From positions 1 through 64,000 of the forward strand of contig NIVC01000760.1 of the NCBI GenBank assembly GCA_002269645.1: a stretch of DNA of 64,000 nt, read 5' to 3'. The position numbers and the translations under genes were made by a program. Under the pieces are notes generated by a model, which did not search any database, was not told where the DNA came from, and saw nothing but the letters and a program-made list of their open reading frames with translations. Of the stretch, positions 35,615 to 59,000 are shown piece by piece (position 1 is the stretch's first letter; the number at the start of each line of letters is the position of its first letter). Source of the DNA: Macrostomum lignano. Taxonomy: Eukaryota.

Positions 35615-36862
35615 GACCTCCCTATCTGGTTATTGACTATCTGATCATAGGGTTTGACCTCCCCATCTGGTCATTGACTATCTGATCATAGGGTCTGACC
35701 TCCCCATCTGGTCATTGACTATCTGATCATAGGCTTTGACTTCCCCATCTGGTCATTGACTATCTGATCATAGGCTCTGACTTCCCCATCTGGTCATTGA
35801 CTATCTGATCATAGGGTCTGACCTCCCCATCTGGTCATTGACTATCTGATCATAGGCTCTGACCTCCCCATCTGGTCATTGACTATCTGAACATAGGCTC
35901 TGACCTCCCCATCTGGTCATTGACTATCTGATCATAGCTAGGCTCTGACCTCCCCATCTGGTCATTGACTATCTGAACATAGGCTCTGACCTCCCCATCT
36001 GGTCATTGACTATCTGATCATAGGCTTTGACTTCCCCATCTGGTCATTGACTATCTGATCATAGGCTCTGACTTCCCCATCTGGTCATTGACTATCTGAT
36101 CATAGGCTTTGACTTCCCCATCTGGTCATTGACTATCTGATCATAGGCTCTGACTTCCCCATCTGGTCATTGACTATCTGATCATAGGCTCTGAACCTCC
36201 CCATCTGGTCATTGATTATCTGATCATAGGCTCTGACTTCCCCATCTGGTCATTGACTATCTGAACATAGGCTCTGACCTCCCCATCTGGTCATTGACTA
36301 TCTGATCATAGCTAGGCTCTGACCTCCCCATCTGGTCATTGACTATCTGATCATAGGGTCTGACCTCCCCATCTGGTCATTGACTATCTGATCATAGGGT
36401 TTGACCTCCCCATCTGGTCATTGACTATCTGATCATAGGGTCTGACCTCCCCATCTGGTCATTGACTATCTGATCATAGGCTCTGACTTCCCCATCTGGT
36501 CATTGACTATCTGATCATAGGGTTTGACCTCCCCATCTGGTCATTGACTATCTGATCATAGGGTCTGACCTCCCCATCTGGTCATTGACTATCTGATCAT
36601 AGGCTCTGAACCTCCCCATCTGGTCATTGACTATCTGATCATAGCTAGGCTCTGACCTCCCCATCTGGTCATTGACTATCTGAACATAGGCTCTGACCTC
36701 CCCATCTGGTCATTGACTATCTGATCATAGCTAGGCTCTGACCTCCCCATCTGGTCATTGACTATCTGAACATAGGCTCTGACCTCCCCATCTGGTCATT
36801 GACTATCTGATCATAGCTAGGCTCTGACCTCCCCATCTGGTCATTGAATATCTGATCATAGG
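35615..36862. repeat. 41-bp minisatellite (GACCTCCCCATCTGGTCATTGACTATCTGATCATAGGCTCT)
   Basis: About 30 copies, some with a 4-bp CTAG insertion. Confidence 0.97.
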
Positions 36863-38393
36863 GGTTTCCTACTGTTGTAATTCAATGCATACAAACTGAT
36901 CTTAAATAACGTATATAAAGCTATTTTCGTTACGTGTCGGCAACAACAACAAATCAAGTGCCGCATCAAGTGCCGTTCAAGTTCAGTGCCACACGCTATC
37001 GGCTTCTCTGCCCACTGACTGACAGAAGATTAACAAGTTTCTTCATTTCCTTCTGCAACAACAAGCATCGATGCCTGAGAAATCAAGAGAATTCTTCCCG
37101 AAAGCAGAAAAGAGAAATATTTCCCTTCTTAAGACAAGGATCGGGAGAGTTATCCTGTTGTACTATACAAGTGTGGGGGGATTAACAAGAATCGGAAGAG
37201 AAAGAGGAGAAAAAGGGATTAACAATCTGGCAGAGATAGATAGATAGATAGGCGTAAAGTAAAGCTAACCAACTCCGAATGCATTTCTTAATCTCGCAGC
37301 ATCCACGGTTTTTGGCTTTTGACAGTATTGGATTAGATCGAGTGGGTTGAGCTTGCATGGATATATACATGTAGTTAAAGCAGACTTTCGAGGGTGGGCT
37401 ATTGGATATCGGCTATTGGATAATTTCACTCGCTCTTAAAATCGACGCGTGCTGTTCTGCAGTTGCTCTTGGGTCGGATTGTTGATTGGGGAACGACCCC
37501 TTGCAAATCTGTGAAATATTCTTTCAGAAAAATTAGTTCCCATCAGTTGAGTCGGATTGCAGGTCCCCAAAGAGAATTTTTTAACTGATTGCTTTGACAT
37601 ACGCGCATAGTTTGTAAAAAGTTGCGCCGAGATTTTCAGTTCAGTTCGTTTACGAGAATTTTCATCCGATTTCATTGCCTATTAGACTGCAGAGATGATA
37701 AAAAGAGAAAAAATGCTTTTTATACTACTTACAAAAAAGAGTAGCATCTGATTTTCGTCTATACATACAGCGAGGAAGCCAATCTCGACGGCTGTGAATG
37801 GAGAACGCGAAGTTCGCGAACTTAAAGTTGCAACGTTTGCAAACAATTGGTACAGCTGTAACCTACAATGTACTCGTAACTCAGCAAAATGTTAATTAGT
37901 AATTCCACCCCGAAACCATGAGGCAAACTTTTCCCAAATCTTCATGCAGCCCCAGAAGTGACGCAATTCAGACCAACGCCAGAGGTTCTCGCAAGGACGC
38001 TGGCGTAAAAATACTAAATACTACTAAATACTAACTTACGCCACGTTAATGGTTGGAAATTCTAGAAAAGACCGGCCCTTGCTTTAGCTAAATTAAATGT
38101 ATATGTTATGGCAATGAAGCCTTTTCGATCAAATAAAGAAGTGAATGTTTATTAATTGTTGTTGTTATGTATAGTCCTTGGGTTCTCGTCTACCAGGTAC
38201 TTCGGGTGATGCAAGTGCAAAGCAAGTTTGATATTTTGGTGACGATGCATGCACCTGTTTCGGTGTGGAAATTCTAACATATTGCTGAGTGTATATGCCC
38301 TGCGTAGATCGAGTGCTACTATATCGCGTCGTGATACAGTATTACGTCCATTGTGAGATCTACATTTAACCACTTCTGCCCCTCAAGCCTATG

Positions 38394-40465: not shown

Positions 40466-40613
40466 GTCAAATGTAAAAGAGCAATCAGCAATGTAGCATA
40501 AAACTAACAATAATAGGGCCTACTTATACTAAGGCCTAATATATTTAGCATTGTCAATACTGGAGATGAGAGAGATTTTGTGATTTTTAGTTCAATAGGA
40601 ATAGAAACAATAT

Positions 40614-41797
40614 TGAGGTGGGGCGGAGAAAGTTTTTAGGGAGATTTGGTAGTTGTTGGGATTGTCCGGTGGTCGCTTGATTTAATGTTGAGTATGAGCG
40701 GCTCAGGCCTTCGAATCGGTGCCATCGTTAATTTGCACAGATTAAATCCGGAAAATTCGTGTGGACAAATCCCAGTTGAAATGTCTCATAGATACTCCAA
40801 CTGCCGGGGTCCTCAATCCCAGGGGGAGGGTAGTTTTAGTTGTAGGCGAGCAGTCTTCGTTGGCACGAGCATTCAGAGTGGGTCCTCAGATACCAAATTT
40901 ATTGTATCTCGTATGTTTGACTTAACTTGTTACTAACAGTGGAGTAGCGCTGCCACCACCATAATTCGCGTATTATGGAACGTTTGGGTCTCAGAGCTTG
41001 CTTCGAGATGAGACTGGGTTGTTTTATGCCCCACGGGCAAATGACTCAAAATAAGCTAGGCTTTGGGTTATTAATGAGAAAATTAATGTTAGATCAACTG
41101 TTTTATTAAGAGTTCAGCGACAGGATACTAAGTTAATAAGTTCAATGGAGAAAATAGCTTGGCGTGTGTGCGAAATCAACTAAGAGTAGCAAATAGTAGA
41201 GGGGACCAAACCCTACTCCGGCAGCTAATTGGCTGGTGCCGCGGTGCACGACTGGATAAAATAAATGACTTAATGCTAGTTGTAAATAAGTTGGGCGGAT
41301 TAAATATTAGTAGTTAAATTGAATGGGGAGAGAGAGAGCGAGGGCGGGCAAAAGAAGGGGGCAAGAAGAAAGAAAAAAAACACAAAAAAACCTTAAAGAA
41401 TTGAAGAAAAAACTAGGCAGCTCCAGGGGCACCATTATATAGAGATTGAAAATGCAAAAGATGGACAAATGGGGTCAAACATTGGTGGCAAAAGGTGGTC
41501 ACGGGGTCCAAGCAACAAACAGACAAAATTAACACAGAAAGATAGGGCGATAAACAAATTTTCCAAAGGAAGGATGCAAAAGACCAGAAAAAGGAGTGGG
41601 AAAACCATCGCAAGAATGGGGAAAACTGACAGAATAAACCAACAACTGGGGCACAGGGTGGACACAGAGGACCAAAAACTGCGGACAGTGGGAATGGGTC
41701 AAAAGGTGGTTTAATAAGTCACGTAAAATAATATTAAATTTAGAAACTAAAATAATAAAGTTCATTGGATTGTTAGTGGCAGCCCCCAACTGCCACA
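40614..41797 (-). repeat. 3' LTR (1184 bp)
   Basis: Direct repeat of 49059-50263; about 96-97% identical by manual comparison. Confidence 0.95.
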
Positions 41798-41845
41798 GTC
41801 TCAGGGGAGCCGTACCTTTTTCAAAATCTTTGGACCTCCCGGTCC

Positions 41846-42493
41846 TCATTGGTAGCATCCTCGATGGGCGACAGCGTGTCCTCTGCGATTGACCGGCCGG
41901 GTGCCACGGGGCGGGCCTCCGTTCGCAGCGGCCAAGTCGGCAGTCGGCAGGGCCGGGGCCGGCTGCGCACTGTTCGAGGCCAAGGTCGATGGGGCTGGGT
42001 GCAACAGCCAGCCCACGAGCTGCACTTGGCCATCGACGTACAGCAGCCGCTCAGAGCGCTTGGCCACGGCCACGTCCCAAAAGATACATAGACGGGGAAT
42101 CCATCCGTCGGCGAGATGGCCTGCCTCCCAATAGGCAATGGCTAGAAAGAGTGCCAGGGCTGGACGCTTGGTTCCTCCGCACTGTAACAAGCAGATCTCA
42201 GCTTGGCGCAGTTGTTCATCAAGCAGATCGTTGGTGTGCTCAGGCCGCATCAGCTTCAGTAAGATGTGCCAGGGTGCATCGAGCTGAATTCGCCCTCGCC
42301 GGGATGCCTGTCTCCGGGCTTCATTGAGTTCTGTTTTTAGCCATTGACGGATGGGAGCTGCGCCAGTCAGAGCGGCTGATAAAGTCCGCAGCTCCTCGGG
42401 TTCTCCTATGCGGAGCCAGGGTGCTCGAGCAGATGGGGTTTTGGGTGCCAGCGTTGGGTGGCTAGCAGCTCCCAGGTTGACATTGTTGTTCAT
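41846..42493 (-). CDS. Additional 215-aa ORF of unknown function between pol and the 3' LTR
   Basis: ATG-initiated, GC-rich and uninterrupted, in the element's sense orientation, preceded by about 1.3 kb of AT-richer noncoding DNA. Protein-like composition with no recognisable motif. Confidence 0.6.
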   Translation of the reverse strand: MNNNVNLGAASHPTLAPKTPSARAPWLRIGEPEELRTLSAALTGAAPIRQWLKTELNEARRQASRRGRIQLDAPWHILLKLMRPEHTNDLLDEQLRQAEICLLQCGGTKRPALALFLAIAYWEAGHLADGWIPRLCIFWDVAVAKRSERLLYVDGQVQLVGWLLHPAPSTLASNSAQPAPALPTADLAAANGGPPRGTRPVNRRGHAVAHRGCYQ

Positions 42494-43836
42494 ATCAATA
42501 GCAGACTTGCAGCTGATAGTCGGCAGATAAATAAGCAGTGGATAATAAGCAAAAGGGATTAATATACAGTGGGGATATTTATGTACAAAGAGTTTGCAAT
42601 TTATAGCGAAACAAATGAAAATAGCTTAGAAATTGTGGCACAAAGGCAGAATCAAAGTTAACCGATTTAGGGCCTGAGAAAATGAAATGCATCCTCAAAT
42701 ACTTTTCAACAGGCCAGGTTTTGGCCAGCAAGGCCAAAAGCTGGGTAATAACAGATTCACCACCCCCCGCTGCGCACTCCAATTGAGGTTACGCAGAGAA
42801 ACTGGGGGGAAGGGGAGGAGTCATAAAAATTGGTAAACCACGAGATAGGGGTGCGGTGCCGCCTTGTCTAAAAAATCTTAGGCTGGGCTTCGGATCGATG
42901 AAAACGAGAAGGCCCCAATTGGGCTCACAAGAACAAAGGTCGCTTGTGAAACTATAGAGTCGCAAACACAAGTTTTAGAATTACACAAATGGCGGCAAAA
43001 GAACAAAATCGAGGTGCCTAACCAACATTTATATAGAAATAGCAGAATAAGAGATAATAACTGAAAAAAAGGCATGCAGGTCTCCATAAGGAGCTATACA
43101 AACAGAGGGGAGAAAAGGCACTGGGAAGATTTTCCCAGGCTTGGCTCGATCGGAACAGAAAATGGGAGCCTTGATTCACCACGGCCTTGAACAAAGAGGG
43201 CCTGATCCGGGTGCAGCAGGACAGAGAGTTAAACCCACTGGTTGAAAAGTACCTTTAGTTTGAAAACTGAGCTGAAAAGGTTTTACAAAGAAATTTAAAA
43301 ATTGTTACGCGATTATGTTACAAAGATGAGCAAAAATTTCAGCACTTTGGGCGTGTGCGAAGAAATTATAGCTAATTTCACAGAACAGCAAGGGGAAATT
43401 CATGCAAAGCTGCGGTATCACAGGTGGATAAATAGAGGCGCATTAGTGCGGGCTTTTACCGGAAAGCCTAAGGCTAAATATGAGGGTGCAGGCTTATCAT
43501 AACGCATCGCATAAGCATGAGCACGTAGAAACATAGCTTATAGCTTTTATCCGGAAAGCTTAAGGAGAGGGGAATGAAACCGCTTTGACAGGAAGCAAAG
43601 GTTACATTAAAGAATCTGCTTTTACCCTCAAGCATAAGGTTTACAGTAGAGAAATTGCTTTTTCCCTCAAGCATAAGGTTTACAGTAGAGAAATTTGAAA
43701 TAACCTTCAGCACATTAGTGGGTGCAGAGAAGGTTTTACAGTGGCAGGGAAAATAATGCATTCGCAAACGTGACTATTGACAGTAGTGCGCAGAATAAAA
43801 TTCGCAGAAAAAGGCGCACACGGAGAAATTTCGCGG

Positions 43837-45201
43837 TTAATTACCTTGAATTTTGACCTCCATTCCAATGTCTGGCAGGTCCGGATCGTCTTCTTCTAGC
43901 ACTTCGGGATGGCGCAGGCTCGACTCAAAGAGCTGGCTGCCTCGCAGATCAGGCTGAGCAGCGGTCTGCGGCTCCGGTGCGGGCTGATTAACTGAATCTG
44001 TTTCGCTTTCCTTGCTGGACTCGTAGGGCAACATTGGCCATTCAGTTTGTTGCGGCGGCTCCTGCGGTTGTTCAGCCATTGTTTGCGGCACTTTGATAAT
44101 ATTGTTCCAGTGTACAAGCACTTCAGTTGGGCATCCTCGTCGTGCTGTGGCAGGTCTGATCCAATAGGCAACTTTGCCAACTTTCTTCACAACTTTATAC
44201 ATGCTCTTATATGGCCAGTGAAACTTGGGCAACTCTCCCAGCTCAAGCTTCGGGTTGGCCAGGCAGACCAGATCTCCGGGCTGCAGTTCCACAGGTTTTG
44301 GCCGGTTCTCATAGTACTCTTCTTGGCGTTGGATTTCTGCTCTCAGTCGCTGTCTCACAATACATTCAGTTTTGGCCAGTCTACGCTGATGTTTGGCAAT
44401 GTACTCCGGGAGGTCAGCTGATATGTCTAGGCGGTCCAGGGTGTTGTCGATAGGATATCGGTAGGGCACTCCATAAACAACATAGTGCGGCGAGAACCCG
44501 GTAGTACAATTGACAGCAGATCTTAGTGCAGTCAAAGTGGCTAGCAGCATCTTGTCCCACTGTTGATGATCTTCTAGGAGACAGGTGAGCACCTTCTTAA
44601 TATTCTTATTACACGATTCAGCTTGTCCGTTTGCCCAGGGCGAGTATGGTGGCGTCGTTGTCTGCCTGATGCCGTAGACTTTGCAGAAGTGTCGGAACTC
44701 ATGCCCTGTAAACTGCTTGCCTTGATCTGAATGAATCCAAGCAGGGATTCTGGTGATTGGAAAGACTTGCTCTTGCAGGAGCGTGATTATTGTTTTGGCG
44801 CGCTGGTTCTTCATGGCGAAGGTGAAGGGGTACTTCGAGGTGGTGTCGACATAGGTGAAGATGTACTTATTGCCTCGATTTGTCGGATCTCCAGTGGGGC
44901 CCAGGATGTCGATCGCGCATCGCCCATAGATTTCGCAGACCAGGAACGATTGTACATGTGCCGGAATTCGTTGCCGTCCTTTGCTTAAAGTGCAGGTCTG
45001 GCAGGAAGCAACGTAGTCAGACACTGCTTTGGCCAAGGCAGGTCGCCAGAATCTTTCGCGCACTTTAGCGATGGTAAGGTCTTGGCCCATGTGTCTGCAG
45101 TAGGGCGAACCATGCAAGTTGGCAAACACGGTGGCATCGAGACTCTTTGGCAGGATGATTTGCGCTTTGTCCTCTTCTCTGATATTGTCGAGATAGTCCA
45201 T
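43837..45201 (-). CDS. pol: pol: integrase domain (HHCC, DDE, GPY/F-like), open but frameshifted from upstream pol
   Basis: LHGSPYCRHMG...SCQTC zinc finger; IDILGP (D), SDQGKQF (D), GQAESCNK (E); GDLVCL...FHWPY. No chromodomain seen. Confidence 0.93.
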   Translation of the reverse strand: MDYLDNIREEDKAQIILPKSLDATVFANLHGSPYCRHMGQDLTIAKVRERFWRPALAKAVSDYVASCQTCTLSKGRQRIPAHVQSFLVCEIYGRCAIDILGPTGDPTNRGNKYIFTYVDTTSKYPFTFAMKNQRAKTIITLLQEQVFPITRIPAWIHSDQGKQFTGHEFRHFCKVYGIRQTTTPPYSPWANGQAESCNKNIKKVLTCLLEDHQQWDKMLLATLTALRSAVNCTTGFSPHYVVYGVPYRYPIDNTLDRLDISADLPEYIAKHQRRLAKTECIVRQRLRAEIQRQEEYYENRPKPVELQPGDLVCLANPKLELGELPKFHWPYKSMYKVVKKVGKVAYWIRPATARRGCPTEVLVHWNNIIKVPQTMAEQPQEPPQQTEWPMLPYESSKESETDSVNQPAPEPQTAAQPDLRGSQLFESSLRHPEVLEEDDPDLPDIGMEVKIQGN

Positions 45202-46089
45202 CGTCTCGGACTTCTAATTGCTCATAAAACGCTAACAGATTTCGCTCGTCTCTTGTCATGTTCAGACGTTGGTTTATTGGCAGTTTCGGTTGTCGGGTTT
45301 CCAATAGATTGATCACCATGGCGATGGAAGAGTCAGCACGCTGATAGGTCTGGAGCTCCTTGCGAGTGACTGGCCTCGGGATATGATCTGTTAGATTCAG
45401 AGTACGGCGTCTGTCTATAGGATTTGCTGGCGCGGCATCGGCTGTGGCGGCATGGTTCGGGGTCGGGAGCTCCCTATGCATGGTTGCTACTTGGACCAGT
45501 GGCCGGGCTGTTGCTGTATTTGAAGGCCGATCCATGTCGGTGGCTTCGGCGTCACTGTTGTTGGAGTTTGAATCGTCAGCAGATAATGATGAGTCAGTGG
45601 AGCTGTCGGCGTCACTGCTGAATCTCACCTTCTTGAACTTAGGGCAGCAAGCGGGTTGGCAGCAGTCATTTCTGGCTGCACTGTGGTCGCTGTCCTCGTC
45701 ACCTTTAGCTAGTAATCGGCGGCTCCTAGTGGGGCAACATGTCGAACTGCTAAAGCTGGTGGGCGACCTCTGAGTCCCGATAACAACTGGCAGTTGGCCT
45801 CGGCTTCGTCGCCGGCAGTTGCAGCTCTGTCAGCGGCTTGCTGTCAGCTGTCGGTGTTGCTGGTGGCGTAGCCTCGCCATTGGACTCATTTGATTTCATC
45901 GGTAGCTTTCGTCGGTGACGGCGGGTCGGTCGCTTCTTGCTCGGTGGAAGACTAGGGTGGTTGCTATCATGGACCTTTGGCGCCGCTGCACCAGTTATCG
46001 CGGCTGGCTGCTTACTTTGGTCCTCGACTGCGGCCTTACGCTGGGCCTCCTCCATGCATTTGGCGTTGTCCTCGGGCTGTCTAGAAAGG

Positions 46090-47587
46090 CCGTCGGCATT
46101 CTGATACTGACTCAATTTTCGGTGCTGGATCTCGAACTCTAATTTGCTCAGGCGTTATAGCCATCTTCCAAAGATTCCTATTTGTTGAGTTTGCCTTAAG
46201 ATCCAGGTTAATGCGGCATGGTCGGTTTGGCAGATGAACTTCTTGGCTAGCAGGTAGAAGCGGAAATGTCGCATTCCGTCTATGACTGCCAATAGTTCCT
46301 GCTTTGTAATTGGATAGCGGGCTTCGGCTGGCTTGAGTCGCCGGGAGAAATAGCCAATTGGGTGCTCGATTCCATCAGCTTGGCTTTGGCTCAGGCAGGC
46401 TCCAATCCTGGTCGCAGAAGCATCCGTGTCCAAGATAAACGTTACTTCAGGATCCTCGCTGAACTGCAGATATGCGAGCACTGATGTCGAAGTCATAGCG
46501 GCCTTGAGCTGGTCAAACGCATCTTGTTGGGCTTTTCCCCATAGACAATTGAAATTCCAAATTTTCTTTTCTTTGATCAAATCATGGAGCGGAGCTGCAA
46601 GTTCTGCGTAGCCGGGTACGAATTTAGCATAATAAGCGCACGCGCAGACAAAGCTTTTGAGTTGGCGGGCTGTTCTTGGTCTTGGCCAAGTTTTGATTGC
46701 TTCAATTTTTGCTAGGTCGGTCTTGATGCCGTCCTTAGTTACTAGGTGTCCCAAATAATTTAGACTTTCCCGAAATAAATGGCACTTCTTGCCTTTGAAC
46801 TTTAAGTTGGCATCTTGCACTCATTTGAAAACCTCTTCCATATGTTGAAGATGGTCGTTGAACTTCTTGGAGTAGACAATGACATCATCTAAATAGGCAA
46901 TTGCACTTTTGTAGGCTATCCCGTTGAGCACAGCATTCATAAGTCTCATGAAGCTGGCTGGAGCTGAGCTGAGTCCCATGGGTATAACATTATAGGCGAA
47001 TTGTCCGCAGTGCAGCGTGGCGAAGGCAGTCAGATCTTGATCTTCTGGACGCAGTGGAATCTGATAGTAGCCACTGTTTAAATCAAATGTACTAAACAGC
47101 TGGCTTCCTTCGAGGCTGGCGAATGCTTCTTGAATGTTAGGAATCGGGTAAGGAAAGTACTCACATTTCTAGTTTAAGCTCCAAAAGTCTTGTACAATCC
47201 TCAGGCTGCCGTCCTTCTTTGGGATGATCACCAGTGGGGTGTTGTAGCTGGAAAAACTTGGTCTGATCACACCTTTGGCAAGAAGATCATCTAGCAGCTG
47301 ATCCACCTTTGGTAACAGATGTGGAAGAATCCTTTGCATTGGCAGGTATACCGGATACTTGTCCTTTAGTACGATGTTATGGGTGACCAGATGAGTTTGG
47401 CCGAGATCATGTGGCCCTTGGGAAAAGATGTTCTTATACTTCTTTAGCAGCTCAATGACTTGAGCGTGCTGGTCACTGGACAGGTCCTCGCCGATATCGA
47501 TCTCCTTGATCCAAGTGTCCGGATCTTCATCTTGGATTTGCTTGACGGAATCTTCTGACTTCAGTAGTGGGACTTTCAGCGGGGACT
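46090..47587 (-). pseudogene. pol: pol: reverse transcriptase + RNase H, with in-frame stops
   Basis: SSYNTPLVIIPKKDGSLRIVQDF, FDLNSGYYQIPL, PMGLSSAPASF, AYLDDVIVYS, YLGHLV, LDTDASATRIGACL, ELLAV, TDHAAL, QNADGLSR. Stops at about 47169, 46821 and 46155. Confidence 0.95.
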
Positions 47588-48988
47588 TTAGTGCTGGCGC
47601 GGCTGCTGGATGGCGCTGCCCCCAATGGCGCGTCCAGCCCTCGTGTTTCCCGAGCTGCCGTTGTGCTGGGACGCGGTGCTGGCCGACCATCGGTGTGGGC
47701 ACTCGACGGCGTGGTGCTCACGGTTGCACCTGTAACACATTGCACTCTGCCGCCGCAACTGATAAGGCGGCTGGCACGAAGTCAACTGTTGCTGCGGCTG
47801 CTGCTGCAGCTGCCGACGTTGACCTCCTGCTGGCGGCGTTCTTGGCGGCGGGTTGCTATTGCGCGGGGTTGCTGAAGTTGATGGAACTGCTGATGCTGCA
47901 CATGGTGTGTGCCGGGTGTCGTAAATTGTGCGCTTCCGTTGGCGCTGCGGCGAGGAGTTGTAGGTACCAAACATCTGGAGCGTTGGCCCCACAAGTCCCG
48001 CGGCTGATGGCAAGCTGGTTTCTATGGCTCCGGGGTGTCGTTGTCGCGCGATCCCCACGAGTAGAACTCTCGCATTTCATTGCTTAGCGTTTCAAGAATT
48101 CGTTGCTGCTCCTGCAGAGTCTCAGTTTGTTGTTCCATCACTTCACACAACCAGTTTTCCTTGGGTCAAGATGACTTGGCGTCGTGTTGCGCCACAGTGG
48201 GTGTCTGACTGTTGTCATTCTCGAGAACTCGTACATGTCTTACTGCTGGCAGCGGTGCTACTCGCTGAGCCAAGCTAGCTGCTGTCTCTAGGCATAGCAC
48301 AGCCCTTCTCGCAGCAGTCAGATTCTGCAGTCTCACCAGGATTAGCTGTTCTCGAGCCGACTGGGCGATTCGCACTCCTACCGTGAACTGGTCCACCAGC
48401 TCAGCTTGCTTTTGCACCAGAGTAAAGTGCAGGAACGCTTTGTCGGCCAGAGCAATTAATCAATCGCCATAGTCATCTACGCTCTCATTCTTGCCTTGCT
48501 GGCAGCTTCGGAATTGCTCGGGATACTCCAGCGTGTCGGCCACGTGCGTGAACTGCTCAGACAACCGCTGTTTGAACTTACTCACCAAACGTTAGGTTGT
48601 CTGGCAGCTCCATCCTGACGACTGCGGGATAGGTTGTGGCGATGTCCAAATTCACAAGGACCTCCGCCTTCTTACGTCTGTTGTCTGTGATCCCATTGAG
48701 CTTGCATCGCTCCTCCAGGGCCTGGATCCAGACATCAAATTCCTGGTTCTGAGTGTACCATTGAATCTTGACCAGTTTTGGCGCTGGAGCTCGATCCTGT
48801 TGCTGGGGCTGCTAGTACACGTGGTGATGGTGTTGTGGCTGGCCTAGGCTGTTCTGCTCCAAGCACCGGCGCACCTCGTCGGTCACCGCGCGAATCATCT
48901 CGTTGTAGGTCGGTCTGGTTGCTGAATTGTCTGAGCCCGCGGCGTTGGCTGTCGCGTCCGCGGCCGTTGAATTAGTTGCTGAAGCCAT
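47588..48988 (-). pseudogene. gag: gag (disrupted by stops and frameshifts), with a C-terminal zinc knuckle
   Basis: ATG at 48988; reads MASATNS...QEFDVWIQALEERCKLNG...QQGKNESVDDYG...CYRCNREHHAVEC. In-frame TAG/TGA stops and frameshifts are present. Confidence 0.8.
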
Positions 48989-49037: not shown

Positions 49038-49057
49038 ATCCCACTTAGCTGACACCA
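49038..49057 (-). promoter_or_regulatory. Primer-binding site, tRNA-Leu-like
   Basis: TGGTGTCAGCTAAGTGGGAT, 1 nt after the 5' LTR. It matches the complement of the animal tRNA-Leu 3' end (TGGTGTCAGAAGTGGGAT) with a 2-nt insertion. Confidence 0.8.
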
Positions 49058-49058
49058 A

Positions 49059-50263
49059 TGAGGTGGGGCGGAGAAAGTTTTTAGGGAGATTTGGTAGTTG
49101 GTAGGATTGTCCGGTGGTCGCTTGATTTAATGTCGAGTATGAGCGGCTCAGGCCTTCGAATCGGCACCATTGTTAATTCGCACAGATTAAATCCGGAAAA
49201 TTCGTGTGGACGAATCCCAGTTAAAATGTCTCGTAGATACTCCGACTGCCGGGGTCCTCAATCCCGGGGGGAGGGTAGTTTTAGTCGTAGGCGAGCAGTC
49301 TTCGTTGGCGCGAGCAGTCTTCGTTGGCGCAAGCATTCAGAGTGGGTCCTCAGATACCAAATTTATTGTATCTCGTATGTTTGACTTAACTTGTTACTAA
49401 CAGTGGAGTAGCGCTGCCACCACCATAATTCGCGTATTATGGAACGTTTGGGTCTCAGAGCTTGCTTCGAGATGAGACTGGGTTGCTTTATGCCCCACGG
49501 GCAAATGACTCAAAATAAGCTAGGCTTTGGGTTATTAATGAGAAAATTAATGTTAGATCAACTGTTTTATTAAGAGTTCAGCGACAGGATACTAAGTTAA
49601 TAAGTTCAACGGAGAAAATAGCTTGGCGTGTGTGCGAAATCAACTAAGAGTAGCAAATAGTAGAGGGGACCAAACTCTACTCCAGCGGATGATTGGCTAG
49701 TACCGCAGTGCACGACTGGATAAAATAAACGACTTAACGCTAGTTGTAAATAAGTTGGGCGGATTAAATATTAGTAGTTAAATTGAATGGGGAGAGAGAG
49801 AGCGAGGGCGGGCAAAAGAAGGGGGCAAGGAGAAAGAAAAGAAAACACAAAAAAAACCTTAAAGAATTAAAGAAAAAATTGGGCAGCTCCAGGGGCACCA
49901 TTATATAGAGATTGAAAATGCAAAAGATGGACAAATGAGGTCAAACATTGGTGGCAAAAGGTGGTCACGGGGTCCAAGCAATGAACAGACAAAATTAACA
50001 TGGAAAGATAGGGCGATAAACAAAGTTTCCAAAGGAGGGACGCAAAAGACCAGAAAAAGGAGTGGGAAAACCATCGCAAGAATGGGGAAAACTGACGGAA
50101 TAAACCAACAACTGGGGCACAGGGTGGACACAGAGGACCAAAAACTGGGGACAGCGGGAATGGGTCAAAAGGTGGTTTAATAAGTCACGTAAAATAATAT
50201 TAAATTTAGAAACTAAAATAATAAAGTTCATTGGATTGTTAGTGGCAGCCCCCAACTGCCACA
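49059..50263 (-). repeat. 5' LTR (1205 bp)
   Basis: Direct repeat of 40614-41797; begins TGTGGCAG and ends CCCCACCTCA on the minus strand; contains a TATATAA candidate TATA box and AATAAA. Confidence 0.95.
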
Positions 50264-50356
50264 ATATGATTATAAAATAGGCTTATAAGAATAACTATAT
50301 TATCTGTAAAATTATCAAGACTATGGCTATGCCTATATTAGAACATTGCTTTGCCA

Positions 50357-50943
50357 CCAGGTTGCGGATAGTATGCATGTACCCTGGAACTTTTCAGCAT
50401 ACAAAACCGCCACCCTAAGTCCTTGGCGTACACAATTGGCATATACAACCCCTGGCAAACTTTGTTGGTGTACACTATTGGCATACACAAGTAACACAGC
50501 CACGCATACTTTTTGGTGTACAAATTTTGGTGAATAAATTCATGCCATGCATGAAAATTATAATGTAAATTAACGTTTTTACGTAAACTAACAAAAAATT
50601 TGTATTGTCAGTGATAAAATTTTTGCTTCTTTGAAATTAACAATGAATAAATTTAGTGTAAACTTTTGCTAAGAGTATCAATTTTGCATTATATTTTTTG
50701 TTTTTTGTAGGTTTTTTGTATTTTTAAGTTTGTTTAAATTGAAAATATTCATAATATTTTAAAAACACTTTTAATACAAAAGCCTTTCTAAAAAAACTCT
50801 ACTTGTGAAAAACCATATTACCTTTGTTAGGAATTTTTGGTGTATATTTTAGTGCAACATTTTGTTTTTGGCATACATTGGCGTACAAAGTCCTTGACGC
50901 CCGAATTTGTCTAGCGTACACGGATACATGATCTGCACACTGG
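50357..50943. mobile_element. Non-autonomous DNA transposon/MITE B (587 bp): imperfect CCAG..TGC.GAT TIR, 8-bp TSD CTTTGCCA
   Basis: CTTTGCCA lies at 50349-50356 and 50944-50951. Ends are CCAGGTTGCGGAT and (reverse complement) CCAGTGTGCAGAT. About 10 subterminal TGGCGTACA-type motifs surround an AT-rich core. Confidence 0.72.
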
Positions 50944-51031
50944 CTTTGCCATAATACTTTGCTTTAATTTTTATAATGTATTTAAGGCCTTTTCTCAGAA
51001 ACTCAAACTTGTTTGCCCTATCACGTCTGAG

Positions 51032-52217
51032 ATGCAATCTCTAAATGAAGAGCAGCGGCATAGACTAGTTATAAAATATAAAATTAAGCACCTTGGGCTA
51101 AGCAACAATGCAATTGCAAAATATTTTGCTGAGCTCAATGTCCCAAGATCAACCATTTATATAATTCTAGATTGCTACTCAGTAACTGGAGAAGATACTG
51201 TGTTATGAAAAAAGGGGTCAAGACAACCAGCTACCAAGGTCACTGCCACTTTGATAGAAAAGATGTCGAATGATGTTAGGATGGGTCTGTCCTAGCGCAA
51301 AATTGCATGCAAATATGACATCAGCCAGCTGTAAGTCAATGAGATTCTCAAGAAGCAGGGACTGATTGCATACAAGAAAAAAAGTGCTATTTGTGTTGTT
51401 GGAGCAGAAAGACTGCCAGCGTGTGAGGATTGATAGGTTCTACTGTGCTATGCTAATAGGAGATGACGGCAGACTGGACATTGTAATAGACAGTGAATCA
51501 TACTTCTCTTTGTCATCCAATGTCATCCCTAGTAACAGGTTCTATTATGCAACAGCTCAAGGTGATGCACCATTGCACCTGATAAGGTCAGGTGTTCACC
51601 CAGCAAGAAATTTGAGGCCAAGTCTTGGTCTGGCTGGCCATCAGCAAGAAGGGCATGTCCAAGGTCTTCTTCTGCCATGGTAGCTCAATGAACAAAGAGA
51701 TCTATATAAGAGAGTGCATTCACAAGCGTCTATTGCCATTTATTAAAGAGCAGCATGCTGATAGCAACTACCTGTTCTGGCCTGACCTGGCAAGCTATCA
51801 CTATGCTTGTGATGTTATTGACACATTTCAAAAGGAAGGTGTCAATTTTGTCAGCAAGGAGCTCAATCCTCTCAATGTACCATAGCTGTGACCACTTGAG
51901 AACTTCTGGGAGATGTTGAAGCAAAAGGTTTGCCATCACAATTGGATGGCAGACAGTCTGGAATAGCTGGAAAATTGCATTCGCTACTGCCTCCGCCAGG
52001 TGGATCTGCACTGTGTACAGGAGATAATGACCAATGTCAAGTCCCAGATTCGCCAAGCTCAGGCTAATGGTGTCAAAGCTGTTTGGCAATGAGCCAGACA
52101 ATCCCTTCTATATTTAACTAAATCCAAGTTAAAAAACATGCATTCAATTTGTTAATTGTTGTCTTACTAAAACAAATAAAAATTAAAAATGTCCAGATTT
52201 TTACTAATCACCCTGTA
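51032..52217 (+). mobile_element. IS630-Tc1-mariner DD37E transposon, transposase pseudogene (51032-52092), with only the putative right TIR seen
   Basis: N-terminal HTH (IAKYFAELNVPRSTIY), VIDSESYF, VMVWLAISKKG, FWPDLASYHY...NPLNVP*LCPLENFW with 37 residues between the second D and the E. Several stops and frameshifts. The end ATCACCCTG-TA is typical of a TA-inserting element. Confidence 0.85.
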
Positions 52218-52317: not shown

Positions 52318-52740
52318 CATAGCCATAGCCACATTTTTAATGCCACAGCCATATTAATATCTATAGCCATATTCATATCTATAGCCATATATCTATATCC
52401 ATATTCATATATATAGCCATATTCATATCTATAGCCATATATTCATATCTATAGCCATATTCATATATATAGCCATATTCATATATATAGCCATATTCAT
52501 ATCTATAGCCATATTCATATCTATAGCCATATTCATATCTATAGCCATATTCATATGTATAGCCATATTCATATATATAGCCATATTCATATATATAGCC
52601 ATATTCATATCTATATCCAGATTCATATATATAGCCATATTCATATCTATAGCCATATTCATATATATAGCCATATTCATATCTATAGCCATATTCATAA
52701 CCATAGCCAAATTCATAACCATAGCCATATTCATAGCCAA
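52318..52740. repeat. 18-bp minisatellite (ATAGCCATATTCATATCT) just upstream of RABGAP1
   Basis: About 23 copies. Confidence 0.95.
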
Positions 52741-52800
52741 TCCCTAGTTAAGCCTGACCACACTACTTCAAGTAGACTAATTAGCAACATTCGCCCATAG

Positions 52801-53083: not shown

Positions 53084-56000
53084 GTGAGTTTCGGGTGTTT
53101 TTTTTGCTACATTTGCTTAACGTCTCTTAGAGCAAAGATGCTATATTACTGTAATGTATGTAGAGGTAACTACATGTATGTAATGTATGCTGTAATGTAG
53201 GCGTCACTCAATCTGGATTTATCCCACTCCTACAGATAAGTATCTAGATTTATCCCACTACTATAGGGATGAGGATCTAGATTTATCCCACTACTATAGG
53301 GATGAGGATCTAGATTCATCCCACTTCTATAAGGATGAGGGCCTAGATTTATCCCACTCCTATAAAGGTTGAGGATCTAGATTTATCCCAGTCCTATAGA
53401 GATGAGGATCTATATTTATCCCACTCCTATAGAGATGAAGATCTAGATTTATCCTACTCCTATAGCGACGAGGATCTAGATTTAATTATCCCACTCCTAT
53501 AGTGATGGGTATCAGCCTCATTAATTGCTGTTCGTGTATAAAAATTGGCCTATTGTGGCTTGCTGCTGCAATTCTCGCCCATGTAGGGCCAACCCCCAAA
53601 CTCACAGAGGTTTATAAACTACTTGCGATAAAAATAAGCCAGAGCCGCTGATAATGTACACCCTGTGTGAGCGCCTGTACCTGAGTACTTTTTTGAGCTA
53701 TCTATGTGCCTTATCTATCTATATAATATGAAATATCGTGGCGGTGTACAGAGATATCGAAGAAGCTCCGGACGGTGCCAGAACTCCGACTGCTTCTTCG
53801 TTGAACCTGGACAGCGGCGGCCAGGAGGGCATCAGCTATTGCGACATGCTCTACCTCGGCTCTGTGTCGGTGTCTCGCGCTCGTGACGAAGACGAAATCC
53901 AGCGCTATTTGAGCCAGTGCGACACTGCCCAGGCTAAACCGGCTAGCATATTTGTGCCGTACACTAACCGGGGCAGCGTGCGGGTGCTGGACCAGTCCGA
54001 TAAGCGGCTGCTATTAGAAGAGCACCCGGTCACGTCTATAGCTTACTGTTGCGTTGGCCGTGGCCACGGCTTGATTAAACGTTTCGCTTTCACTGTTAGC
54101 GAGGCTATGAAATCTGGCGAACTGCAGCAGCAGCAACAGCAGCGAGTTGTGATGCTGTACGCTCCATCCGATGCAGCAGCTTTGTCTGTTGTTAACCAGA
54201 TGGCTCAAGCGTTTCGGTTAGTTGCTTAACTATTAATATTTGTTTATGTATATGCCCAAGGAATTGGGATAATTGAGGATTATGGAGTTTTTTGGGAATT
54301 GGGATAATCGAGATTATAAATTTGTTAGGGAAATTGGGATAATGTAGGATTATGGATTTTTTGAGAATTGGGGATTATTGAAGATTATAAATTTCTTAGG
54401 GGAATGTGGATAATTGAGGATTATGTATTTTTTGCGAATTGGGATAATTGAGGATTATAAATTTCTTAGGGAAATTGGGATAATGTAGGATTATGGATTT
54501 TAAGGAATTGAGATCATTGAGGATTATCGAGTTTTTAGGGAATTGAGATAATTGAGGATTATTGATCTTTTGGGAATTGGGATAACTGAGGATTACGGAT
54601 TTTTGAGAATTGGGATAATTCAGGATTAAGGACTTTTGTGAATTATGGAATTATCATAATTAGGGATTATGAATTTTGGGCAAAGGGATTATTAAGAATT
54701 TTGGATTATGAGAAAAGTTTATATTGTTTGTTTAATTTTATACTTGTTTTATATTTCTTCAAGGTCCTATGATTTACCGGATTCTGGTACACAGCTGCAT
54801 CAGCAGCAGCAGGATCAGCAGCCCGATCTGCGGCCTTGCCTCGGCCTTCGCCTCCTAGTTGACATCCAAGAGCAGGACGGCAAAGGCGCTTGGAGCTCTG
54901 TGCCGGTGGATGATAAATATGATTTTAAGGTAACTATTTTAACTAGATAAAAAGTTGAATTGCTTTCAGGTCTTGGCATTGTTGGGTTATAAATAGAGAA
55001 AGTGTCAAGAAAAGCGCCAAAATCAAGCTAGACAAGCGCCAACCAATATCAAGCTAGACATGCGCTAGAATCAAGCTAAAATCACGTAGCCAAAATCAAG
55101 CTAAATAGGAGAGCGCCAAAATCAAGCTAAAGAAGAGCGCCAAAATCAAGCTAGACAGCGCCAAAATCAAGCTAAAGAAGAGCGCCAAAATCAAGCTAAA
55201 GAAGAGCGCCAAAATCAAGCTAAAGAAGAGCGCCAAAATCAAGCTAAAAAAGAGCGCAAAAATCAAGCTAGACAGCGCCAAAATCAAGCTAGACAAGCGC
55301 CAAAATCAAGCTAAACAAGCGCCAAAATCAAGCTAGACAAGCGCCAAAATCAAGCTAGACAAGCGCCAAAATCAAGCTAAAGAAAAGCGCCAAAATCCAG
55401 CCAATACCGAATGAGTCTCCATCTCCCCTCTATCTCTGTCTCCCCCCCCTCACTGCCATTACTCAGGTGCGCCAGTCTCACCCTAAGCGACTGCACCTGA
55501 CTGTACAACAGACCGCCGGCAGAAAAGTGAACATCAGCCGTTGCTTTGGTCTGCTATTAAGAGTTGGCAGTCAGCCAGACGCCGTCTGCCTGCCGCTGTC
55601 TATGGGCCCAGATTCCGACGGATATTCCGTGTGCGCCGTGTGGCCAGGCGCCGAGGCGCTGGTCGCTTCGGATCAGCTGATCTCATTAAGACTGTGCGTC
55701 GACCTCGTGTTGGAAGCTATCTCGGACCCGTTGAGGCTAAAGTGAGTACGGAGTGTTTATTACGGATGTTGGTCTGACTTCTGAACTAAGTGGGATAAAT
55801 TATTTATCTCACTCCTATTGGGATGAGGATCTAGATTTATCCCACTCCTATAGGGATAAGGATCTAGATTTATCCCACTCCTATAGAGATGAGGATCTAG
55901 ATTTATCCCTCTGCTATAGGGATGAGGATCTAGATTTATCCCACTCCCCTATAGGGATGAGGATCTATATTTATCCAACTCCTATAAGGATGAGGATCTA

Positions 56001-59000
56001 TATATAGATCCTCATCCTCAGGGGTATATAGGGATATAACATCCCTATCCTCACCCCTCATCCAGATAAATATATATTTATCCCACTGCTTATAGGAATG
56101 AGGATCTATGTTTATCCCACTCCTATAGGGATGAGGATCTATATTTATCTCACTCCTATAGGGATGAGGATCTATATTTATCTCACTCCTATAGGGATGA
56201 GGATCTAGATTTATCCCACTCCTATAGGGATGAGGATCTATATTTATCCCACTCCCCTATAGGGATGAGGATCTATATTTATCCCACTGCTATCGGGATG
56301 AGGATCTATGTTTATCCAACTCCTATAAGGATGAGGATCTAGATTCATTTCGAATCCTAAAATCTCAGAATCCAGATCCACCCGGCCACTGCCCCATCAG
56401 GTACGACGCCCTGATCAGAGTGTACCGGCCGGAGGAGCGATTCTGGCTGGCCTCGCTGACCAGCAATCTGCAGCAACGCCGCCTGCCGGGCCGCAGCTTC
56501 GTGTTCCGGCACCAGAACAGCGCCCTGGTGAATGAGAACAGCGCTTCGGACACTGACTCGGATGATAATGACCCTTTACCGTCCGGTTCCGGCCAGGTGT
56601 CCAAGGAGATCACGGATGCCGAGCTCACAGACGAATGGGTGGCTGTTATCAACCGATGGCAACGTGAGCAGACTGCTCAAGCTCCGTCTAGCGTTAGACG
56701 ATTAGTTCGACGCGGCGTGCCTGAGTCGCTTCGGCCTCAGGTGTGGAGTCTGTTGGGCAGATCGCAACAGGCCAGCCCTGTCACTGCCGACTACAGCGAT
56801 CTGAGCTGCAAGGATGCGCCTGAGATTGAGGCCGCTATTGCCAGGTTTGGAAATAGTAGTATTGGAGTAACTGTTGCGTGAGATTCTCATTGAGGTAGGC
56901 GTGAGATTCTCATTGAGGTAGGCGTGAGATTCTCATTGAGGTAGGCGTGAGATTCTCATTGAGGTAGGCGTGAGATTCTCATTGAGGTAGGCGTGAGATT
57001 CTCATTGAGGTAGGCGTGAGATTCTCATTGAGGTAGGCGTGAGATTCTCATTGAGGTAGGCGTGAGATTCTCATTGAGGTAGGCGTGAGATTCTCATTGA
57101 GGTAGGCGTGAGATTCTCATTGAAATAGATGTGAGATTCTCCTTCAGATAGATGTGAGATTCTCATTGAGATAGATGTGAGATTCTCATTGAGGTAGGCG
57201 TGAGATTCTCATTGAAATAGATGTGGGATTCTCCTTCAGATAGATGTGAGATTCTCATTGAGATAGATGTGAGATTCTCATTGAGGTAGGCGTGAGATTC
57301 TCATTGAAATAGATGTGGGATTCTCCTTCAGATAGATGTGAGATTCTCATTGAGATAGATGTGAGATTCTCATTGAGATGGACGTAAGATTCTCATTGAG
57401 ATAGATGTGAGATTCTCATTGAGGTGGGCGTGAGATTCTCATTGAGATAGATGTGAGATTCTCCTTCAGATAGATGTGAGATTCTCATTGAGATAGATGT
57501 GAGATTCTCATTGAGATAGATGTGAGATTCTCATTGAGATAGATGTGAGATTCTCATTAAGATAGATGTTAGATTCTAATTGAGATAAATATGAGATTCT
57601 CATTGAGATAAATGTTAGATTCTCATTGAGATAGATGTTAGATTCTCATTGAGATAGATGTGAGATTCTCATTAAGATAGATTTTAGATTCCCATTAGGA
57701 TAGATGTTAGATTCTAATTGAGATAGATGTGAGATTCTCTTTGAGATAGATGTGAAATTCTCTTTGAGATAGATGTGAGGTTCTCATTCTAATAGATGTG
57801 AGATTCTCTTTGAGATAGATGTGAGATTCTCATTAGGATAGATGTTAGATTCTTATTGAGATAGCTTTTAAATAATTATTGAGCTAGCTGTTAGATTCTC
57901 ATTGAGATGGACGTGAGATTCTCATTAAGATAGATGTGAGATTCTCATTGAGATAGATGTGATTCTAATTGGGATAGACGTGGTTGTTATTATTTTTTAT
58001 TCTAATAAAGAGTGCGATAGTCATGAATACTCTAGCATGAAACCTCGAATAAATCCCTGCAGAGACATCAGTCGAACGTACACAGCCTGCCCAGACTTTG
58101 CCGAGGGCGGAGCTAAACGGGAAGATCTGGCGCGATTGAGCAAAGCATACGCTCTGTATGACCCAGCTGTGGGCTACTGCCAGGTAGGGTGTGCGTTTCT
58201 TGTGCTCTGACTACTCAATCGTGTTTACTCGACCCAATCTACTCAATCCTGTCCTGCCTGCTCAATCCTGTCTACTCAATCTTTTCTGCTCAATCCTGTC
58301 TACTCAATCGCGTCTACTCAATCGTGTCTGCTCAATCCTGTCTACTCAATCGTGTCTGCTCAATCGTGTCTGCTCAATCCTGTCTACTCAATCGTGTCTG
58401 CTCAATCCTGTCTACTCAATCGTGTCTACTCAATCGTGTCTGCTCAATCCTGTCTACTCAATCGCGTCTACTCAATCGTGTCTGCTCAATCCTGTCTACT
58501 CAATCGCGTCTACTCAATCGTGTCTGCTCAATCCTGTCTACTCAATCGTGTCTGCTCAATCGTGTCTGCTCAATCCTGTCTACTCAATCGTGTCTGCTCA
58601 ATCCTGTCTACTCAATCGTGTCTGCTCAATCCTGTCTACTCAATCGCGTCTACTCAATCGTGTCTGCTCAATCCTGTCTACTCAATCGTGTCTGCTCAAT
58701 CCTGTCTACTTAATCCTGTCTACCTAATCTTGTCTACTCAATCCTGACTACTCAATCCTGTCTGCTCAATCCTGTCTGCTCAAGCATGTCTACCTAATCT
58801 TGTCTACTCAATCCTGTCTACTTAAGCATGTCTACTCAATCCTGTCTACTCAATCGTGTCTGCTCAATCCTGTCTACTTAATCCTGTCTACCTAATCTTG
58901 TCTACTCAATCCTGACTGCTCAATCCTGTCTACTCAAGCATGTCTACCTAATCCTGTCTACTCAATCCTGTCTACTCAATCCTGTCTGCTCAATCCTGTC

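Follow-up and report, generated by a model that had tools for sequence, protein, structure and literature searches.

The stretch of Macrostomum lignano DNA analysed here (64,000 nucleotides; the window) contains, on its minus strand, an old and broken, otherwise complete Gypsy element. Between the integrase gene and the 3′ LTR, this element carries an additional open reading frame, ORF3, which occurs within the family in two alternative forms, A and B. The window copy holds form A. The features of the element, in its direction of transcription, are as follows.

50264-50267 and 40610-40613, target-site duplication ATAT (from the sequence)
49059..50263, minus strand, 5′ LTR with TG...CA ends (self-BLAST; 94.8% identical to the 3′ LTR)
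49040..49057, minus strand, primer-binding site immediately after the 5′ LTR (from position and sequence)
43837..48988, minus strand, gag-pol, comprising gag, RT, RNase H and integrase (Pfam RVT_1, RT_RNaseH, rve, Integrase_H2C2)
43593..43695, 39-bp tandem repeat, 2.7 copies (Tandem Repeats Finder)
42494..43836, minus strand, non-coding spacer, common to the A and B forms of the same sub-lineage
42597..42606, minus strand, TATA-like box, candidate internal promoter, ~112 nt before the ORF3 ATG
41989..42526, minus strand, exchanged module, present in A-form copies only, with a non-homologous B module in their partners (BLAST of the window copy and the young A copy L033 against the B copy L109)
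41846..42493, minus strand, ORF3 form A, 215 aa
42005..42427, minus strand, conserved core of ORF3-A, residues 23-163 (alignment, dN/dS, AlphaFold2)
41846..41926, minus strand, basic Arg/Gly (RGG-like) tail, common to the A and B forms of a lineage
40614..41797, minus strand, 3′ LTR (self-BLAST; the same identity to the 5′ LTR)

The element displays the hallmarks of the Ty3/Gypsy group, namely TG...CA LTRs, a primer-binding site, gag followed by the order RT-RNase H-integrase, and a short target-site duplication. Its closest reverse transcriptases are 61% identical within M. lignano and at most 49% identical elsewhere. The gag-pol region is interrupted by four stops in gag, three in RT/RNase H (seven in 1,695 aligned gag-pol codons) and several frameshifts; the integrase is open. 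The primer-binding site, which we take to be tRNA-Leu-like, differs in its middle part among lineages. The 5′ LTR begins with a TGTGG...CCAC hairpin, and in the window (41798-41845) as in most other lineages a C- or GC-rich stretch precedes this hairpin, despite an unrelated remainder of U3. No polypurine tract lies directly before the 3′ LTR in the 12 lineages with a readable LTR start, the sequence there being GC- or C-rich, and plus-strand priming may be unusual in this family.

The spacer of the window copy is 90% identical to that of its B counterpart, while the spacers of a young A copy and the B copy are 97% identical. Its 39-bp repeat, present in 2.7 copies in the window, reaches 7-8 copies in young members of the same lineage, with related repeats in other lineages. 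Across lineages, spacers contain tandem repeats of 39-63 bp just past the pol stop, which share a common core and are lineage-specific in unit and copy number. These repeats are a candidate binding or packaging signal. Two young A copies, L051 (C2067) and L055 (C1811), have almost no spacer; in L051 the ORF3 ATG lies 13 nt past the pol stop.

The element is flanked by satellite and minisatellite arrays (35615-36866, 52379-52800, 53211-53513, 55802-56348 and ~58100-61200) built of 41-bp, short AT-rich, 66-bp-like and 14-bp units. On the plus strand, a 165-aa frame at 53732-54229 resembles an exon of a host gene and is presumably PTB-domain-like. Fragments at 50915-51885, also on the plus strand, are presumably remains of a decayed DDE-like DNA transposase.

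A preliminary description of this DNA had pointed to an uninterrupted, GC-rich extra ORF downstream of the integrase. This ORF is indeed present. It runs on the minus strand from the ATG at 42493 to the TGA at 41846, encodes 215 aa at 61% GC without a stop and includes all the peptides quoted earlier; 1,343 nt separate its start from the integrase stop (43837), and 48 nt its end from the 3′ LTR. The contrast with the broken gag-pol, to which the description had also drawn attention, exists, but the openness of this one copy is no more than chance would give, as a 215-codon frame stays open 41% of the time at the copy's own stop rate (P ~0.41). Form A is recognised as a real gene from sequence because other copies keep it, not because the window copy is free of stops. 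The genome holds 109 matches to ORF3-A, at 32-100% identity, and a divergent member used as query recovers nearly the same set (107 matches). Co-occurrence with Gypsy genes is equally clear: gag, RT, RNase H or integrase lies upstream on the same strand in 68 of 78 loci, these being the ORF3-A profile matches whose context DNA was inspected. Intact ORF3s in internally deleted copies were left out of the evidence, such loci having been located by means of ORF3 itself. In an alignment of twenty members, a 140-residue core contains 14 invariant columns, with a methionine 10-40 residues ahead of the core and a basic tail after it; over the whole family, ORF3 spans 190-280 aa and has its own ATG. 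All 14 between-sublineage pairs that give a value have dN/dS of 0.06-0.23, indicative of purifying selection. One further pair is saturated, and three near-identical pairs lie at 0.26-0.55 with intervals reaching 1, as is expected for drift after insertion. For the core of the window copy against L033, dN is 0.040 and dS 0.37. Apart from the ORF3-A frame, only its antisense counterpart carries the selection signal; as this counterpart holds stops and just mirrors third positions, an antisense gene was rejected.

The protein predicted from form A differs from a retroviral envelope. Env proteins are typified by a signal peptide and a C-terminal membrane anchor flanking the ectodomain (PMC13524379). 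As previously suggested, neither these elements nor a furin motif occurs in the window protein, whose best 19-residue hydropathy is 1.14. Among the other family members, judged by hydropathy only, no Env anchor or hydrophobic N-terminus is found either (best 19-residue values 0.63-1.62 in 20 A and 0.88-1.73 in 12 B proteins). The RxK/RR motif occurs in 3 of 20 A proteins and is therefore not a conserved furin site, and no cysteine is invariant among A proteins. AlphaFold2 models ORF3-A as a helical bundle with a small C-terminal hairpin and disordered ends (core pLDDT 79.9, pTM 0.70). Because signal peptide, membrane anchor, conserved furin site and invariant cysteine are all lacking, ORF3-A, with its predicted helical core and Arg/Gly tail, is by these sequence features not an Env. 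The earlier proposal of a family-specific, non-env accessory protein under purifying selection is thus supported by the copies and their dN/dS.

Searches for relatives of the protein returned almost nothing. A single-sequence search of 5.8 billion proteins with ORF3-A found no relatives, and a profile search found only two M. lignano hypothetical proteins (2 of 7,999 scored candidates; 2 of 1.84 billion representatives). No relative of A was found outside Macrostomum, an absence that weighs little since transposon ORFs usually go unannotated. Neither A nor B matches Pfam, PHROG or PDB sequences; with 20 A and 13 B or fusion proteins, Pfam gave nothing below E 0.06, including no GDSL or DEDDy domain, and Atlas gave no usable match. 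With no host homologue or family found in these searches, the idea of a captured host gene, raised in the preliminary description, is not supported. At the level of structure, Foldseek yielded no match of the A model at E≤0.001 in PDB and viral libraries, and the best VIA Z scores (7.5-7.7) lie inside the helical background. The similarities to the CUL3 N-terminus (Z 7.5, rmsd 3.8, 102 aligned) and the Seb1 CID (Z 6.8, rmsd 4.1, 91 aligned) likewise fall within the helical-bundle background. No homologue or fold from these searches indicates a function for ORF3-A.

An integrase search identified 104 family copies at ≥74% identity among 150 scored. Downstream DNA was inspected for 37 integrase copies without an A match and for three copies of a sister family. 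Many of the A-less copies carry another ORF of 200-280 aa, form B, which has 89 matches in the genome. Within 10 kb, by coordinates, the 104 integrase copies comprise 53 with A, 35 with B, none with both and 16 with neither; among the 37 best-scoring copies, the numbers are 17 with A, 19 with B and one with neither. Form B consists of an acidic, proline-rich N-terminal half (pI 4.1-4.7 and 12-23 prolines in 12 of 12 proteins), a core of 103 residues and an RG tail like that of A. Its core is also under constraint, with dN/dS of 0.08-0.34 in 13 of 14 pairs and 0.59 in the closest pair. Profile comparison detects no relation between A and B (probability 0.4%, E 0.14). An apparent A-B match at a probability of 77% was rejected: the B alignment contained a fusion protein, and the match vanished without it.

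Both forms have transposed recently, and B copies are as young as A copies. Young A copies have near-identical LTRs (99-100%). Of 18 B copies examined, 14 have a detectable LTR pair, which is 99.4-100% identical in ten, and several carry an open pol of ~1,550 aa. Copies of the two forms occupy different insertion sites, each with its own target-site duplication and near-identical LTR pairs. Open gag-pol copies occur in both forms, and neither is visibly defective.

When grouped by U3, 8 of 32 clusters contain both forms, and a ninth A-B pair is tied by spacer and tail. The remaining 24 clusters contain a single form; they mostly consist of 1-3 copies, and several pair up at lower thresholds. 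The nine A-B pairs share spacer, tail and LTR (identity 89-98% upstream, 82-97% downstream) and differ only in a module that begins ~30 nt ahead of the ATG and ends with the core (~540-nt core). In the lineage of the window, the B partner is L109 (C1081). Compared with it, both the window copy and L033 lose homology ~33 nt before the ATG and regain it past the core; L033 is 96.7% identical to L109 upstream and 96.9% downstream, with the same tail peptide. Between lineages, A proteins are 42-67% identical (one pair 86%) and B proteins 27-66% (one pair 82%). The core distances of A and B correlate, with Mantel r=0.71 and p=0.0006 for nine pairs, and r=0.51 and p=0.0004 for 14 pairs, the pairs having been picked by us from flank identity. 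Three well-supported pairs are common to the A and B trees, whose deep nodes are weak. In the integrase tree, copies group by lineage, not by form, and the A copy of the window is more distant from L033 (A) and from L109 (B) than these two are from one another. Shared flanks, co-divergence and the integrase tree together indicate that A and B predate the lineages, that both have been kept in each and that their flanks are still being exchanged.

Exchange also acts on the larger 3′ cassette. Elements with ~97% identical RTs carry ORF3s that are only 44-50% identical. In L051 versus L056, the swap of a 3′ cassette onto a common pol is directly seen: homology covers the inner half of the LTR through pol and ends at the pol end, pol dS is 0.02-0.05, and the synonymous sites of ORF3 are saturated. 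The upstream part (U3) of the 3′ LTR is lineage-specific and moves with the ORF3 cassette.

Two routes of expression were compared. The preliminary description had noted an acceptor-like string just upstream of the ATG and suggested a spliced subgenomic mRNA. The string is present at 42513-42531, but its use in splicing is not supported, as it lies inside the A-specific module, is limited to the window's lineage and belongs to a pattern that is not enriched before the ATG (1 of 18 versus 34 of 288 windows of the background). In that lineage the B partner lacks any AG over the 45 nt preceding its ATG, and several A lineages have no acceptor in the 75 nt before theirs. Contigs from four sequencing runs, which we guess to be of RNA, span portions of ORF3-A; of the 15 joints listed among 20, not one enters near 42513, but such contigs cannot show absence and speak neither for nor against splicing. 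The motif TATAWAW occurs at -50 to -170 in 9 of 18 lineages and in 6 of 144 other spacer windows (p ~1e-6, for an interval chosen after viewing the sequences). The spacer contains 17 upstream ATGs, matching chance expectation. As the acceptor pattern is not enriched, TATAWAW is, and 17 ATGs precede the ORF, we infer that an internal promoter is the likelier route of ORF3 expression.

At the C-terminus, an acidic tail in another frame, extending to 41821, had been read as the remnant of an ancestral C-terminus lost to a frameshift. The acidic frame is there, but this origin is contradicted by conservation of the in-frame RG tail, which is found in 14 of 14 lineages versus 0 and 2 of 14 in the other two frames. 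Its RGG codons vary synonymously, which points to a tail conserved as protein. Within the window's lineage, the tail has no third-position bias, and in the window copy it is partly decayed (NRRGH versus NRGGR).

Two intact ORFs reside in the remains of elements. P0002, present in three copies (L062-L064; C616, C1020, C2108), joins A core, B core and RG tail, in this order, in one intact frame of 291 codons. The gag and pol of its host element are full of stops and frameshifts, and the copies of P0002 show 6-9 differences over 873 nt and vary less than the DNA around them. P0001 (L065, L070; C292, C4115; also C1863) is an intact A-only ORF with a TATA box and only an integrase remnant nearby. 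Both are annotated as M. lignano genes. By their sequences, P0001 and P0002 may be kept by the host and are candidate domesticated genes, and the P0002 fusion may reflect later host co-option rather than the ancestral state.

We postulate that this Gypsy family has a two-form accessory locus, in which a copy carries either A or the non-homologous B and the two forms complement each other in trans from different copies; we give this reading a probability of roughly 0.4. It builds on the observed locus, selection on both forms, mutual exclusion, common flanks, co-divergence, recent transposition and the fusion gene. ORF3 would be transcribed from the TATA-box promoter in the spacer, with the transcript ending in the 3′ LTR. 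Both proteins would bind RNA or reach the nucleus via their common RGG tail; B would contribute its acidic, proline-rich N-terminal half, of the activation-domain kind, and A a helical partner domain, so that together they promote expression or export of the RNA of their own lineage. By analogy with CERV, a regulator of the RNA of the Caenorhabditis elegans element Cer1, the RGG tail and the acidic region suggest that the element's own RNA is what these proteins regulate. A and B genomes would be packaged together, and template switching would keep pol, spacer, tail and LTR alike, leaving unmixed the non-homologous cores. Finally, with the rarer form limiting, every lineage would retain both at similar frequency.

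Template switching between co-packaged RNAs is established retroelement biology and would account for the common flanks. A recombinant clade related to HERV-K(HML-2) serves as an example of it, as far as covered in PMC11379458. Template switching does not explain why both forms were retained against drift over times that saturate synonymous sites; this needs selection favouring the rarer form. At least nine sub-lineages have retained both versions alongside each other, which makes mutual dependence of A and B copies likely. Complementation is the favoured form of this dependence because a single pathway is suggested by the promoters they have in common, by co-divergence and by the fusion. Several observations weigh against it. 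If many copies shared a trans-acting product, selection on any one of them should be relaxed, a point for which the model gives no full explanation. Moreover, the 24 of 32 U3 clusters hold one form, the fusion sits in a decayed element, the Mantel pairs were chosen by us and the deep nodes of the trees are weak. Open gag-pol in both forms, the choice of the TATA interval after inspection and the lack of third-position bias in the tail of the window's lineage count against it too. A bolder version of the complementation reading likens the forms to mating types: a bipartite Gypsy in which two genome forms each supply part of an accessory function and have to come together in a single cell or particle, with balancing selection having kept both while at least nine promoter lineages radiated and with host-domesticated A and A-B genes acting on the system. 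We regard this version as somewhat less likely than not.

Alternatively, A and B could be antagonists, an activator and a repressor or a poison and its antidote, each gaining when rare. The acidic N-terminal half found in B and not in A would suit such opposed roles, as would the near 1:1 ratio among young copies; the fusion and the A-only ORF, which have no acidic half and stay intact in decayed elements, look as host-kept inhibitors would. Opposition of this kind is known for the foamy virus proteins Tas and Bet, in the portion of PMC13220597 considered here. A pure repressor or antidote form should, however, vanish or share a genome with its target, and purifying selection on the two cores is similar. 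Antagonism is unlikely on this balance.

Independent action of the two forms, each directed against a host pathway or adapted to a tissue (male germ line, female germ line or stem cells) under diversifying selection, would agree with cores that have no detectable homology and with an ORF3 that diverges far faster than pol (42-67% versus ~97% for RT). M. lignano is a hermaphrodite, which also suits specialisation by tissue. The same promoter regions, spacer and U3, lead one to expect expression of both forms in the same cell, flank homogenisation needs co-packaging, and the fusion suggests one pathway; we consider independent action improbable as well.

Co-divergence, selection on both forms and the near 1:1 ratio would be covered at once by a rare two-gene source element in each lineage, with A then B between direct repeats, from which single-form copies arise as reverse-transcription deletions. 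Tandem A-A duplicates of ORF3 do arise (C4905, C50) and a fusion exists, but not one of the 104 integrase copies has both forms within 10 kb, where nine lineages would each need a source; copies of this type could be missing from the assembly or collapsed in it. A and B are joined only in the fusion, which sits in a decayed element, and a two-gene source is quite improbable. Least probable by far is a neutral dimorphism or an artefact of assembly or of a hybrid genome: the main text of PMC12801592 calls the species a hidden allotetraploid and its assembly redundant, but each form has insertion sites of its own, with separate target-site duplications and LTR pairs that are near-identical, purifying selection acts on both, and the pattern is repeated in nine lineages with synonymous-saturated cores.

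Several known systems resemble the complementation reading in part. The proviruses of HERV-K(HML-2) come in two structural types, 1 and 2, whose accessory products differ; type 1 is a deletion derivative. As there, one family exists here in two forms with 3′ modules that would be swapped by recombination of co-packaged RNAs; in contrast, A and B are both full and selected, their cores are non-homologous, and nine old lineages each show the split. The idiomorphs of fungal mating-type and het loci are dissimilar sequences at one locus with homologous flanks, under balancing selection. They offer an analogy only, being host loci rather than mobile elements and having no genes in common with the family.

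Among third ORFs, CERV of Cer1, described in parts of PMC10309623 as an export factor for genomic RNA, is likewise an orphan ORF that sits after pol and ahead of the 3′ LTR. It has 517 aa, a spliced mRNA and H, M and G-protein-like domains, whereas ORF3 has 190-280 aa, its own ATG, a likely internal promoter, a predicted helical core and two alternative forms. Bdelloid non-env ORF3s (PMC5408684) and plant sense aORFs (PMC7264820) are modular third ORFs at the env position as well, and in Adineta sp. 11 two ORF3 types, DEDDy plus GDSL, are fused in one ORF. In the sections of these two papers that deal with them, such ORFs are family-specific and often recognisable enzymes or membrane proteins, whereas here two orphan forms alternate per sub-lineage between near-identical flanks. 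Foamy virus Tas and Bet, as presented in part of PMC13220597, are two accessory regulators beside the 3′ LTR with an internal promoter, which in our family is a candidate. Both are spliced from one genome that also has env, and no sequence relation was found. The sORF2/FAST-like fusogen of MDG1 elements, of ~70 aa in the portion of bioRxiv 2025.03.14.642691 concerned, has a transmembrane helix and lies upstream of gag; ORF3-A, with 215 aa, has no membrane helix and lies downstream of pol.

Orphan and non-env third ORFs are thus already known in Gypsy elements, and what appears new is the two-form locus. A literature search of titles and abstract openings found no either/or accessory pair within one retroelement family. 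The word 'ORF' is absent from the main text of an M. lignano LTR survey (PMC12801592), and its supplements 2-5, the predecessor paper or Repbase could list these ORFs. The locus would be of a new kind if mutual dependence were shown. If the forms complement each other, it would show a retroelement with one genome moving towards a divided one by use of two RNAs that are packaged anyway, as well as cooperation among selfish copies over long times. The family also adds two new protein families and two candidate domesticated genes. Its host is a laboratory animal with RNAi and transgenesis, in which the proposal is testable; an LTR has been used in a reporter in M. lignano (main text of PMC12801592).

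Further arrangements were observed in and around the family. Units consisting of the spacer end, form A of ORF3 and part of the LTR are duplicated in tandem with a period of ~1.4 kb in L002/L003 (C4905:11217-13253) and L006/L010 (C50:77846-79869). L109 and L224 (C1081:316764-336700) are two tandem B-form elements, 99.95% identical, with a period of 9.5 kb and apparently one common LTR. A third, 'class C' ORF was rejected, as it is a C-terminal extension of the pol of another Gypsy family. In that family (L138, L144, L226-L235), a conserved orphan domain with 55 matches is fused to the pol end, and in two loci this domain follows the integrase of the A/B family.
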